From positions 18,834-82,833 of the forward strand of contig JBFJPL010000001.1 of NCBI GenBank assembly GCA_041617155.1: a stretch of DNA of 64,000 nt, given 5' to 3'. Below the pieces are notes generated by a model. It was not told the DNA's origin, did no database searches, and saw only the letters and a list, made by a program, of their open reading frames with translations. The stretch comes from Kiloniellales bacterium. Its GTDB lineage: Bacteria > Pseudomonadota > Alphaproteobacteria > Kiloniellales > JAKSDN01. Positions 10,033-14,758 of this stretch are shown here, one piece after another. Position 1 is the first letter of the stretch. The number at the start of each line of letters is the position of its first letter. The position numbers and the translations under genes are program-made.

Positions 10033-11376
10033 TTAAGAGCTGGCGTTCCCGAGCTTGGCGTAAGAAGCGAGAAGTCGGTCCACCAGCAAGGGCGCGGATC
10101 CGACACTCCCCTCGATCCGGCGAAGATCCTCCCAGTCGATCGGGGCTTTCGTGCGCTCGGCCAGAACGTCGAACATGTGGCGGCGCGCGCCGATCGCTTC
10201 CCGGCATGCGCTTTTGACCAGGGACTGCGCTTTCGGGCGGGCCATGTGCCGGGCGAGCGCGAAGGTGGCGGCTTCGGCCAGGATCAAGCCCTGCGAAGCA
10301 TCGAGATTGGCCCGCATGCGATCAGCGTCGGCCACGAGGTTCCTGGCCGCGGCCTCGGCATGGCGGAGGGCCGTGCCGGTCGCCACGGCCATCTGCGGCA
10401 GGGCCAGCCATTCCAGCATCCAGGCCGCGCCGTCGCGCTCCTCCGCGTGCAACACGGCTTGATGCACGGCGCTCACCTGCGCGGCATTGAAGCGCGCGAG
10501 CGCGACGAGTGTCTCCGCAACCACCGGATTGGACTTCTGCGGCATGGTCGAGGAGCCCCCGCCGGCACCAGCCCGCACCTCGGCGATCTCCGACTTCCCG
10601 AGCAGGATCAGGTCCTGTCCCATCTTGCCGAGACCGCCGGTGACAAGCGCCAGCCAGCCGGCGAGTTCCGCCAAGGCGTCACGCTCAGCATGCCAGGGCC
10701 CGGGCGGACGGCGGAGATCGAGCTCGTCGGCGAGCGCCTCCAGCACGGCGACACCCCGATCGCCCAGCGCGGCGAGCGTGCCGGAGGCGCCGCCGAGCTG
10801 CACCCCGAGGAGACGCGGGCGAAGCTCGGCCAGACGCCGACGATGCCGGATCAACGGCGCGAGCCACCCGGCGATCTTCAGTCCGAAGGTGGTCGGCGTG
10901 GCCTGCTGGGAACGGGTGCGTGCCGCCATGACGGTGTCGCGGTATCGCTTCGCCTGTTTGGCGAGCGCATCGGACGCGGCCGCCAGACGGGTGTCGAATC
11001 CCTCGAGACAATCGCGCAGGCGCAGCACAAGTCCTGTATCCATGATGTCCTGCGAAGTGGCGCCCCAATGGACGAAGTTCGCCGCCTCGCCGCCGACCGC
11101 TTCGCGAACCCGGGCGACCAGACCCGGGATCGGCACGCCATTTTCCGCAGTGGCGGGCGCCAGGGAAGCAGGGTCGATCTCGAGGCGCGTAGCGACCTCC
11201 GCGATCCGGGTCGCCGCCTTGCCGGGGATGACGCCGAGCCGGCCCTGGACTTGCGCCAAGGCGGCCTCGACGCGCAGCAGCGCTCGCAATTCGGCCGCCG
11301 CGGAGAAGTGGGCCGCGGTCTCCTCGTCCGACAACAGATCGCGATACAGTGCGGAGTCAAATGGGGTCACGGTCAT
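10033..11376 (-). CDS. pcaB: 3-carboxy-cis,cis-muconate cycloisomerase
   Basis: Fumarate-lyase superfamily signature GGGSSTMPQKSNP, WGATSQDIMDTG, and pca operon context. Confidence 0.9.
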   Translation of the reverse strand: MTVTPFDSALYRDLLSDEETAAHFSAAAELRALLRVEAALAQVQGRLGVIPGKAATRIAEVATRLEIDPASLAPATAENGVPIPGLVARVREAVGGEAANFVHWGATSQDIMDTGLVLRLRDCLEGFDTRLAAASDALAKQAKRYRDTVMAARTRSQQATPTTFGLKIAGWLAPLIRHRRRLAELRPRLLGVQLGGASGTLAALGDRGVAVLEALADELDLRRPPGPWHAERDALAELAGWLALVTGGLGKMGQDLILLGKSEIAEVRAGAGGGSSTMPQKSNPVVAETLVALARFNAAQVSAVHQAVLHAEERDGAAWMLEWLALPQMAVATGTALRHAEAAARNLVADADRMRANLDASQGLILAEAATFALARHMARPKAQSLVKSACREAIGARRHMFDVLAERTKAPIDWEDLRRIEGSVGSAPLLVDRLLASYAKLGNASS

Positions 11377-11391
11377 GCGGTCATCAAGAAC

Positions 11392-12219
11392 TCAAGAGGG
11401 CAGAGACAGCATCTGACGCGCTTCCGCCGGCGTCGCGGGCTTCCTGCCGTACTCGGAGCAGAGCTCGGCGACCCGGGCGACCAGCTCGGCGTTGCTCGCC
11501 GCCAGCCGCGTCCGGTCGAAGCGGAGGTTGTCCTCGAGGCCGGTCCGGCAGTGGCCGCCCAGGTCCAGCGCCCAGTGGTTCATCTGCAGCTGATCGCGGC
11601 CAATGCCGGCGGCGGTCCAGGTCGCCTCCGGCATCAAGTTCTTCAACTGAGCGACCTCGAACTCCAGAATCTCACGGCGGGCCGGCAAGGCGTTTTTCAG
11701 ACCGAAGACGAATTGCACGTGGACCGGTTTGGCCAGCAGGCCGGCCTCGGCCATTTCGGCCGCCGTGTAGAGCATCGCCAGGTCGAAGACCTCGACCTCC
11801 GGCTTGATCCCCTTCTCGAGCATGGTCTCGGCCAGACTGCGGACCAGGTCCGGGTGGTTCTCGTAGACCATGTTCGGAAAATTGACCGACCCGGTCGCGA
11901 GCGAAGCCATGTCCGGCTTCAGGTAGAGCATGCCGCCACGCTGCTCCGGCGCCCGGCCGCGCCCTCCGGTCGAGAATTGGATGATCATGTCTGGGCAGTG
12001 TCTGCGAACGCCTTCCTGAAAGGCGGAGAACTTCTCGGGGTCCGAGGACGAGCTTTCATCGGCCTCGCGGGCATGGACATGGACCAGGGCCGCGCCAGCC
12101 TCGAAGGCCTCGTGGGTCGATTCGATCTGCTCCGCGACCGTGATCGGCACGGCCGGATTGTCCTTTTTGCGCGGCACCGATCCGGTGATCGCGACGGCGA
12201 TGATGCAGGGTTGGCTCAT
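11392..12219 (-). CDS. BKACE-family enzyme (3-keto-5-aminohexanoate cleavage enzyme-like, DUF849)
   Basis: IIAVAITGSVPRKKDNPAVPITVAEQIESTHEAFEAGAALVHVHAR...CRTGLEDNL is the TIM-barrel BKACE pattern. Inserted between pcaG and pcaB. Confidence 0.8.
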   Translation of the reverse strand: MSQPCIIAVAITGSVPRKKDNPAVPITVAEQIESTHEAFEAGAALVHVHAREADESSSSDPEKFSAFQEGVRRHCPDMIIQFSTGGRGRAPEQRGGMLYLKPDMASLATGSVNFPNMVYENHPDLVRSLAETMLEKGIKPEVEVFDLAMLYTAAEMAEAGLLAKPVHVQFVFGLKNALPARREILEFEVAQLKNLMPEATWTAAGIGRDQLQMNHWALDLGGHCRTGLEDNLRFDRTRLAASNAELVARVAELCSEYGRKPATPAEARQMLSLPS

Positions 12220-12271
12220 GGCATTTCCTCTCCAGGGTGCACCGGAGACCGGCCCGTGGCCAGGTCTCGGT

Positions 12272-12859: not shown

Positions 12860-12862
12860 GGT

Positions 12863-13591
12863 TCAGTTCCCCTCCAAGCGGTTCTCGAACAGCGTCGAAC
12901 GGCGCCCGCGCAGTACGATGTCGAACCTGTAGGCGCGCGAGTCGAACGGCACGGTGGCCCTCATGTCCAAGGCCGCGATCAGACGTTCGATCGCGGCCGG
13001 GTCTGGGATCGTGTTCACGATCGGGCAGAGCCGGATGTGCGGATCGCCCTCGAAGTACATCTGGGTGATCAGCCTCTGGGCGAAACCGGAGCCGAAGATC
13101 GAGAAGTGGATATGGGCCGGGCGCCAGTCGTTGGCGCCGTTCGGCCAGGGGTAGGGCCCGGGCTTGATGGTATGGAATGAGTACGAGCCGTCGTCCCCCG
13201 CCATGCAGCGGCCGCAGCCGCCGAAGTTCGGGTCGATCGGTGCCAGGTAGGTGTCGTTCTTGTGCCGGTAGCGGCCGCCGGCGTTGGCCTGCCAGATCTC
13301 GATCAGCGCATTCGGCACCGGGCGGCCGTTCTCGTCGAGCACCCGGCCATGGACGATGATCCGTTCGCCGATTGGCTCGCCGTCCTTGGCGTAGTTGCGG
13401 ATCAGGTCGTGATCCAGCGGCCCCAATTCGTCGCGGCCAAACAGCGGGCCGGTTGCCTCCGACAAAGTGTTCCGTACGGACAGGAGCGCCTGGCGAGGCG
13501 AGCGCAAGGTGCTGGTCTTGTAATCGGGCGTGTAGGCGGGCGGGTGCTGGCCGCGGTCCCGCTGATAGAATTCGCTTTTCGTGTCCATCAC
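12863..13591 (-). CDS. pcaH: Protocatechuate 3,4-dioxygenase beta subunit
   Basis: [17 protein letters not shown]...[32 protein letters not shown] overlap with pcaC. Confidence 0.93.
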
Positions 13592-13971
13592 TGCATCTCC
13601 TCGAATTCGGCGTACGCGGACTTGGCGATCTTGATCGCCCGATTGGCCGCCGGCACGCCGGCGTAGACCGCGACGTGCAGGAAGACCTCCTTGAGATCGT
13701 CGGCCGTGGCTCCGGTATTGCGCGTCGCGCGAACGTGCATGGCGACCTCTTCGTCGTGGCCCAGCGCGGCCAGAAGCGCAATCGTGACAAGGCTGCGCTC
13801 TCGCTTGGTCAAGCCGTCGCGGCTCCAGACCGAGCCCCAGGCGCCTTCCGTGATGAAGCGCTGGAAGTCCTCGTCGAACGGGGCCTTGTTTGCCTCCGCG
13901 CGGTCGACGTGGGCGTCGCCCAGCACTGCGCGGCGGGTCTTCATGCCCAGGGTGTAGCGGTCGTCAGACAA
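13588..13971 (-). CDS. pcaC: 4-carboxymuconolactone decarboxylase
   Basis: [13 protein letters not shown]...[43 protein letters not shown] is the CMD family. I prefer the TTG at 13971 (GGGAGG 7 nt upstream) over the track start at 13989. Confidence 0.88.
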
Positions 13972-14758
13972 GGCCGGCCTCCCTTGCAAAATCGTCGATC
14001 AGATGCGCCAGACCGTCGGGTGCCTCGACGCAGGGCAGGTGTCCGACGCCGTCGATCGTTGTGAAGCGGGAATTTGGAATCAGGTCCGCCAGCGATCGGA
14101 CGAGCGCGGGCGGCGTGGCGCCATCCTCTGTCCCGACCACGCACAGCGCTGGCACCCGCAGCGTTTTCGCCGCATCCGTCAGATCGGCGTCGCGGATCGT
14201 CGCGCAAGTGCCCACATACCCTTCCACGGGTGTGCGGATCAGCATGTTGCGCCAGCCTGCGAGCTCGGCCGGGCGCTCGGCGCGGAACCGCGCGGAGAAC
14301 CAGCGCTCCAGGATGGGCTCGGCCAGCGCCTCGATTCCGCCCGCGCGGATCGCCGCGATCCTCTGGTCCCACATGTCGGGCGGGCCGATCCTGTGCGCGG
14401 TGTCGCACAGCACCAGCGCGCGCGCCAGATCCGGGCGCGCGGCCGCCAGGGCCTGTGCGATCATGCCGCCGACCGAGAGACCGACCAGCAGCGCGCCACG
14501 GATTTCCAGGAGATCGAGCAGCCCAGCGAGGTCGGCGACGTGATCCGACAGCGGGTAAGGCGCTGGCGGTGCTTCCGAAAGCCCGTGGCCGCGCTTGTCG
14601 TAACGCACGACCCGGAAATCGCGGGCGACGGCTTCGACGACGCCGCCCCAGATTCGAAAGTCGGTGCCCAGCGAGTTGGCGAAAACCAACGCCGGCTTCG
14701 AGTCCGCTCCGGTGATCGAATGGTGAAGCACGGCGCCGTTGATCTGCGCGAACCTCAT
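13964..14758 (-). CDS. pcaD: 3-oxoadipate enol-lactonase
   Basis: Alpha/beta hydrolase with GLSVGG nucleophile elbow, VFANSLGTDFRIW, RYDKRGHGLS. First gene of the pca operon. Confidence 0.9.
   Translation of the reverse strand: MRFAQINGAVLHHSITGADSKPALVFANSLGTDFRIWGGVVEAVARDFRVVRYDKRGHGLSEAPPAPYPLSDHVADLAGLLDLLEIRGALLVGLSVGGMIAQALAAARPDLARALVLCDTAHRIGPPDMWDQRIAAIRAGGIEALAEPILERWFSARFRAERPAELAGWRNMLIRTPVEGYVGTCATIRDADLTDAAKTLRVPALCVVGTEDGATPPALVRSLADLIPNSRFTTIDGVGHLPCVEAPDGLAHLIDDFAREAGLV

Follow-up and report, generated by a model that had tools for sequence, protein, structure and literature searches.

The question raised by this locus is how 3-oxoadipate, the product of PcaD, is cleaved when neither the CoA-transferase PcaIJ nor the thiolase PcaF is encoded alongside the protocatechuate (pca) genes. 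[quoted passage not shown] An earlier note on this DNA had proposed that the enzyme replaces both PcaIJ and PcaF in one step. Our analysis leads to a somewhat modified answer, to which we would give a probability of roughly three in four: the BKACE is the 3-oxoadipate-cleaving exit of the pca operon and the acetoacetate formed is passed on to general enzymes.

The pca operon and its BKACE gene

The genes pcaH, pcaG, pcaB, pcaC and pcaD are all present, each scoring above the cut-off of its own NCBIfam equivalog model (Table 1), and the coordinates of the open reading frames (ORFs) confirm the order pcaD-pcaC-pcaH-pcaG-BKACE-pcaB on the minus strand (10033-14758) given in the earlier note. Also the gaps around the BKACE gene are exactly as claimed there, 52 nt from pcaG and 15 nt to pcaB, and the remaining junctions of the operon are overlapping or 3 nt long. 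We take the genes from pcaD to pcaB to be a single transcription unit. The sequence GGAGG is found 7 nt 5′ of the pcaD ATG, and a Shine–Dalgarno-like GGAGAGG (12233-12227) is situated 7 nt ahead of the BKACE start codon; at the pcaB start, 15 nt after the BKACE stop codon, an obvious ribosome-binding site was not found. The operon probably ends at a hairpin downstream of pcaB which is the sole minus-strand terminator-like match between positions 9200 and 15200. The GC content at third codon positions is 0.87 in the BKACE gene and 0.82-0.89 in its neighbours, and this agreement argues that the BKACE gene is no recent insertion. Rfam families, meaningful repeats and mobile-element ends were not found in the region from 9 to 16 kilobases (kb).

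The BKACE protein matches the family profile PF05853 with 325.1 bits (gathering threshold 24.8), its residues 4-273 covering the complete profile (1-274 of 274). It also matches NF053568, the equivalog model named "3-oxoadipate:acetyl-CoA acetyltransferase", with 479.2 bits at a cut-off of 350, and a 76%-identical homologue carries the same name at the Joint Genome Institute. The scores with the model of the lysine-fermentation enzyme Kce (273.7 bits, cut-off 382) and with the model of the dioxohexanoate enzyme (182.7 bits, cut-off 430) are below the respective cut-offs. In a neighbour-joining tree the protein groups where most pca- and maleylacetate-linked sequences fall. The nearest solved structures are 3NO5, 3CHV and 3FA5 (57-64% identity), structural genomics entries deposited as being of unknown function, and after these comes Kce (2Y7D).

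The alignment with Kce places H47, H49 and E229 of the BKACE at H46, H48 and E230 of Kce, which are reported to be zinc ligands (Bellinzoni et al. 2011), and this site is invariant in 87 of 87 relatives. The catalytic base E143 (E143 in Kce, E171 in BKACE15, a BKACE from Paracoccus) and the active-site arginine R225 (R226 in Kce, R254 in BKACE15) are kept in the BKACE and in the same 87 relatives, and so are S83 and D230 when mapped to Kce. At the position of Kce Glu14, which holds the amino group of the substrate, the BKACE of the window has Val15. Arg87 and Lys18 are invariant within the BKACE subfamily but not in Kce, and these two residues are candidates which might bind the distal carboxylate of 3-oxoadipate. 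For BKACE15 it has been shown that the enzyme binds one zinc per active site, that the glutamate acts as the base (from structures and the E171L mutant) and that binding is ordered, with the keto acid preceding acetyl-CoA (PMC11961710).

The earlier note had further stated that pcaIJ and pcaF are missing from the window, and here our searches agree. A six-frame tblastn search of the whole window with the A and B subunits of a Paracoccus 3-oxoacid CoA-transferase and with E. coli PaaJ (3-oxoadipyl-CoA thiolase) gave nothing at E<1e-3, and Pfam/NCBIfam scans of ~48 other ORFs of the window found no CoA_trans domain, no thiolase and no acetoacetyl-CoA synthetase. Two candidates from the window were considered and rejected: a 684-amino-acid AMP-binding enzyme is FadD-like and not an acetoacetyl-CoA synthetase, and a short-chain dehydrogenase/reductase scores under the cut-offs for 3-hydroxybutyrate dehydrogenase.

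The name of the NF053568 model, the intact catalytic residues and the linkage to the pca genes support, as far as can be judged from sequence, the predicted chemistry. In the pathway that we propose, pobA of the same window would supply protocatechuate to the pca operon, and the BKACE, as a zinc-dependent TIM-barrel enzyme, would act on the 3-oxoadipate released by PcaD in a Claisen-type exchange, in which 3-oxoadipate and acetyl-CoA would give succinyl-CoA and acetoacetate. A 3-oxoacid CoA-transferase would then convert acetoacetate and succinyl-CoA to acetoacetyl-CoA and succinate (with acetoacetyl-CoA synthetase as an alternative activator), and an acetoacetyl-CoA thiolase would split acetoacetyl-CoA with CoA into two acetyl-CoA. 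The enzymes handling acetoacetate would not be linked to the operon and would be encoded outside the window. From the reaction equations we infer that the net conversion, 3-oxoadipate plus CoA to succinate plus acetyl-CoA, is identical to that of the PcaIJ/PcaF route. The same equations modify the idea of a one-step replacement of PcaIJ and PcaF: the BKACE could stand in for dedicated pcaIJF genes, but a CoA-transferase (or a synthetase) and a thiolase are required all the same.

Conservation of the pca linkage in relatives

According to their source names the closest homologues come from Kiloniellaceae-like or Pelagibius-like Alphaproteobacteria. All close relatives inspected (77-85% identity; loci L001-L003, L087-L090 and L091-L094) show the same pcaD-C-H-G-BKACE-B order, and in these neither a CoA-transferase nor a thiolase was found within 10 kb of the BKACE gene. 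Contigs of GCA_041579315.1 (a metagenome-assembled genome) and of GCA_041599595.1 are 99.95% identical to the window; between L087/L088 and the window there are 0-2 substitutions per gene, which is too few for a selection analysis. Differing gene orders are found as well, namely pcaD-H-G-B-BKACE (L010), pcaD-C-BKACE (L017) and pcaH-G-BKACE (L067, L080). The arrangement pcaDCHG-BKACE-pcaB is present on many Paracoccus and roseobacter plasmids, and the megaplasmid of Ruegeria pomeroyi DSS-3 carries pobA-pcaC-H-G-BKACE. Its recurrence in numerous lineages that are independent of one another shows that the arrangement is more than chance, and the retention of the BKACE gene through rearrangements and in distant lineages speaks for a functional connection with 3-oxoadipate.

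The structure 3CHV was deposited as that of a DUF849 protein without known function; it is exactly the BKACE whose gene comes after pcaG in the pca cluster of R. pomeroyi (L082, 7986-8837). An experimental structure of a pca-linked BKACE is thus on hand for docking or mutagenesis.

The BKACE gene is also found in other contexts which appear to be independent links to routes yielding 3-oxoadipate. On plasmid pSR-2 of Skermanella rosea (L086, 4348-7831) it directly follows the gene for a maleylacetate reductase, which is itself preceded by an intradiol dioxygenase gene, in a putative hydroxyquinol pathway, and in a further locus (L023) a maleylacetate reductase gene is close to it. In Cupriavidus basilensis (L019, 6109-11482) it stands between genes for a QuiC-like 3-dehydroshikimate dehydratase and shikimate kinase, with a LysR regulator nearby.

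Plasmid IV of Paracoccus aminovorans (L081, 9113-11321) has a pair of genes for the A and B subunits of 3-oxoacid CoA-transferase inserted between BKACE and pcaB in an otherwise identical operon, and no thiolase is present in this operon. Judged by gene content, the insertion would fit a pathway in which the succinyl-CoA formed by the BKACE activates acetoacetate in the very next step.

We also considered that pSymB of Sinorhizobium meliloti may have pcaG-ORF-pcaB plus pcaIJF. This argument was dropped, as no Rhizobium/Sinorhizobium plasmid was matched: a close BKACE homologue at E<=1e-70 was not found on these plasmids, pSymB itself being unannotated in our collection.

Alternative explanations and the surrounding genes

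Several observations, which we give together with the alternatives they bear on, weigh against the BKACE as the exit from the pathway. The window is a 64 kb part of a metagenome-assembled genome, and pcaIJF could sit outside of it. In Agrobacterium fabrum pcaIJF and pcaDCHGB are indeed separate operons with different regulators. For Methylobacterium Lee et al. 2022 (PMC8963497) described a DUF849 gene between pcaG and pcaB in a cluster without pcaIJF and proposed the same bypass; they explicitly leave room for pcaIJF homologues elsewhere in the genome. Roseovarius nubinhibens cannot grow on 4-hydroxybenzoate once a 3-oxoacid CoA-transferase gene situated outside its pca cluster is inactivated (Xu et al. 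2025), so that one roseobacter at least continues to need a CoA-transferase. In addition, the papers that we consulted report no kce knock-out. It could therefore be that the classical PcaIJ/PcaF or generic paralogues encoded elsewhere in the genome carry the flux and that the BKACE is minor, redundant or conditional.

We regard this explanation as unlikely. The BKACE gene has been kept in the operon across distant lineages and rearrangements, and this speaks for selection on a role in the pathway. With pcaHG-kce-pcaB-pcaL of Methylobacterium nodulans alone, M. extorquens PA1 became able to grow on protocatechuate (Seriki et al. 2025, PMC12379598), in a test of sufficiency performed without a kce deletion control. 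Moreover, the R. nubinhibens data, according to which the CoA-transferase is essential, pcaF is dispensable and an acetoacetyl-CoA thiolase compensates (Xu et al. 2025), are equally well explained by cleavage through a BKACE followed by acetoacetate processing. These results fit either route; the explanation by a BKACE assumes that the enzyme is present in this strain. The work of Bastard et al. is cited by Xu et al. for one purpose only, to explain residual substrate consumption.

A second point that weighs against our interpretation is the breadth of the NF053568 model. Only ~10 of the best 80 genome relatives are pca-linked. In 27-29 of these 80 the BKACE gene follows directly on genes for a biotin carboxylase and a pyruvate-carboxylase-B-like carboxyltransferase, with IclR-type and MFS genes alongside (loci in Table 1); the hosts are Arenicellales, Pseudolabrys, Burkholderiales and other metagenome-assembled genomes. 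The Arenicellales clusters add a carnitine-dehydrogenase-like enzyme, a CaiB-like CoA-transferase, a GST and an ADP-forming acyl-CoA ligase. The homologues in the carboxylase context score 461-464 bits with NF053568, and the NF053568-positive homologues (64-70% identity) in carboxylase, carnitine-dehydrogenase-like and CaiB-like clusters have no obvious link to aromatics. Since homologues from non-aromatic contexts score equally well, the match to this model alone leaves the physiological substrate open. BKACE enzymes are in addition promiscuous within charge classes. One could thus argue that the BKACE of the window acts on another beta-keto acid and that its position among the pca genes has no bearing on the cleavage of 3-oxoadipate.

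We consider such a different substrate very improbable. The enzymes of the pca operon yield one beta-keto acid only, and this is 3-oxoadipate. The gene is linked elsewhere to maleylacetate reductase and QuiC. No more than two conserved positions, Ser14/Ala and Arg233/Lys, set the aromatic-linked group apart from the carboxylase-linked one; this suggests that the substrates of the two groups are similar and gives no sign of a different substrate here. For the BKACE of the window it is the operon context and not the model match which decides on the substrate. In the carboxylase-linked clusters one possibility would be that carboxylation makes a dicarboxylic beta-keto acid which is then cleaved by the BKACE.

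The third point concerns the expression of the operon. A divergent LysR gene stands next to pcaD in L091 and L092, and a LysR gene is present also in P. aminovorans and R. pomeroyi. In the window a tblastn search with two PcaQ-like queries found no homologue of a PcaQ-type LysR regulator anywhere. The slot of the divergent LysR (PcaQ-like) gene of the relatives is occupied by an ORF (QuiC-like/RTX in Table 1) whose first ~100 codons resemble residues 492-595, in the C-terminal portion of a 625-amino-acid QuiC-like 3-dehydroshikimate dehydratase; this QuiC-like stretch includes 19 codons upstream of the GTG called as start at 14830. The remainder of the ORF consists of RTX/HCBP calcium-binding repeats. 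The QuiC-like remnant starts within ~15-70 nt of the pcaD start codon, and this suggests that a deletion or rearrangement removed the pcaQ regulator together with the native promoter region. As both appear to have been deleted, expression of the operon is uncertain, and a sigma-70-like promoter was not found by our scan, which is a crude consensus match only. Signs of damage are also seen in nearby genes, one being an FAH::maleylpyruvate-isomerase chimera and another a P-type ATPase in two parts (see below). Possibly, then, the pca operon is a decaying or silent remnant and the BKACE has no current physiological role. To us this appears to be the most remote of the explanations: all six ORFs are full length with scores above the equivalog cut-offs, the catalytic residues are kept, and no fewer than two further assemblies of the population share this structure.

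Table 1. Positions of the features of the window and loci of the carboxylase-linked homologues
Feature	Position	Strand	Evidence and remarks
pobA, 4-hydroxybenzoate 3-monooxygenase	1690..2865	+	TIGR02360 625 bits (cut-off 538.7); start coordinate from the gene call in L087
TRAP transporter dctP, dctQ, dctM	3258..6234	+	aromatic-acid uptake role from context
terminator-like hairpin, 9 pairs and T-rich tail	9959..9980	-	~50 nt past the pcaB stop
pcaB	10033..11376	-	TIGR02426 388.8 bits (cut-off 355.75)
BKACE (DUF849), 275 amino acids, predicted 3-oxoadipate:acetyl-CoA acetyltransferase	11392..12219	-	PF05853 325 bits; NF053568 479.2 bits
pcaG, protocatechuate 3,4-dioxygenase alpha subunit	12272..12859	-	TIGR02423 231 bits (cut-off 126.25)
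pcaH, protocatechuate 3,4-dioxygenase beta subunit	12863..13591 (or 13588)	-	TIGR02422 372 bits (cut-off 296.4)
pcaC, 4-carboxymuconolactone decarboxylase, 127 amino acids	13588..13971	-	TIGR02425 197.6 bits (cut-off 155.7); end 13971 from the gene call in the near-identical contig L087, the ORF listing reaches a TTG at 13989
pcaD, 3-oxoadipate enol-lactonase, 264 amino acids	13964..14758	-	TIGR02427 329.7 bits (cut-off 255.85)
QuiC-like/RTX ORF abutting the pcaD start	14773..15768	+	profile scans, tblastn
carboxylase-linked loci, part 1	BKACE near 10001 of each locus		L032, L037, L039-L044, L047, L048, L051-L053, L056, L057
carboxylase-linked loci, part 2	BKACE near 10001 of each locus		L060-L066, L069-L071, L074-L076, L078, L079

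Besides the pca operon the window contains pobA, a TRAP transporter which probably imports aromatic acids, and a cluster for 3-hydroxybenzoate/gentisate that includes a MarR regulator, and in addition a P-type ATPase, FtsH, cbb3 oxidase together with the genes for its assembly, ccm genes and ABC transporters. After the gentisate 1,2-dioxygenase gene there is an ORF (8591-9292, plus strand) whose product matches an FAH-family hydrolase with residues 19-172 (profile 10-163 of 219) and the C-terminal end of maleylacetoacetate/maleylpyruvate isomerase with residues 168-233 (TIGR01262 145-210 of 211, 64 bits). This looks like an in-frame deletion which fused the genes of fumarylpyruvate hydrolase and maleylpyruvate isomerase, and the fusion has probably interrupted the gentisate pathway; L087-L089 have this chimeric ORF of 233 amino acids too. 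Two overlapping ORFs on the plus strand (15896-17929 and 17862-18878) together make up a Ca/Mg-type P-type ATPase, one matching the N-terminal and the other the C-terminal half of the model. As the gene calls of the independent assembly L087 show this split too, a genuine frameshift is more probable than an error in the assembly of a single contig.

Significance and known systems

An acetoacetate-forming bypass of this kind is already known: it can be derived from the work of Bastard et al. 2014, was put forward for Methylobacterium in 2022 and in 2025 served to build an M. extorquens that grows on protocatechuate. The activity has a curated model and a name, and the same gene arrangement and the same reasoning are in print. 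As far as the work of Bastard et al. 2014 is reflected in the papers citing it, beta-ketoadipate or negatively charged substrates were assigned to particular BKACE groups on the basis of enzyme screening and active-site modelling, and succinyl-CoA and acetoacetate were proposed as the products.

Nearly all database entries of the subfamily are named "3-keto-5-aminohexanoate cleavage protein" or "DUF849". Such entries score under the equivalog cut-off of Kce and over that of the 3-oxoadipate enzyme, and this naming is a systematic mis-annotation which hides a variant of the pathway. Our analysis offers a correct functional call for a gene mostly annotated in this way. It also indicates that among marine and soil Alphaproteobacteria it is common to leave the beta-ketoadipate pathway by way of acetoacetate, and automated tools for pathway reconstruction which look for pcaIJF would rate such organisms as incomplete. 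The exit is also of relevance for engineering in lignin valorisation.

A more far-reaching proposal, which we put forward tentatively and hold to be rather less than an even bet, is that the BKACE serves as the sole exit from the beta-ketoadipate pathway in this uncultured alphaproteobacterial lineage and possibly also in numerous roseobacters and in Paracoccus. Aromatic catabolism would then run obligatorily via free acetoacetate and the general enzymes of acetoacetate and polyhydroxybutyrate metabolism, and in R. nubinhibens "pcaIJ" would be an acetoacetate:succinyl-CoA transferase and "pcaF" would be one of redundant acetoacetyl-CoA thiolases, both acting downstream of a BKACE. If this were true, the published interpretation of the R. 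nubinhibens data as "pathway crosstalk" would need revision.

Among the known systems the reference enzyme of NF053568 resembles the BKACE of the window by a full-length match, a size of ~275 amino acids and the same catalytic residues. The label of this model, 3OXCoAcCUPNH, suggests a reference protein from Cupriavidus necator H16, and its activity, EC 2.3.1.318, reportedly goes back to Bastard et al. 2014. The orthologue of C. basilensis is ~71% identical to the BKACE of the window, but its gene is placed between the QuiC-like dehydratase and shikimate kinase whereas the gene of the window is inside pcaDCHGB. The kce gene of M. nodulans (Mnod_2085) is located as in the window between pcaG and pcaB in a cluster without pcaIJ and pcaF; the cluster is, however, arranged as pcaHG-kce-pcaB-pcaL, with a fused pcaL, instead of pcaD-C-H-G-BKACE-B. 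SPO_RS19985 of R. pomeroyi, the protein of structure 3CHV, is also pca-linked, is 57.5% identical to the protein of the window and reaches 490 bits with NF053568, and unlike in the window its cluster pobA-pcaC-H-G-BKACE is without pcaD or pcaB. Likewise 3FA5 from Paracoccus denitrificans is a pca-linked BKACE and was, like 3CHV, deposited with the remark "unknown function". Kce shares with the BKACE of the window the fold family, the zinc site, the catalytic glutamate and arginine and the exchange with acetyl-CoA that releases acetoacetate; it is 39% identical and belongs to lysine fermentation and not to aromatic catabolism. The classical pair of PcaIJ (3-oxoadipate:succinyl-CoA transferase) and PcaF (3-oxoadipyl-CoA thiolase) uses the same substrate and arrives at the same net products once the acetoacetate has been processed. 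These proteins belong, however, to unrelated families and activate 3-oxoadipate with CoA first, whereas the BKACE would cleave the C–C bond of the free acid with acetyl-CoA.

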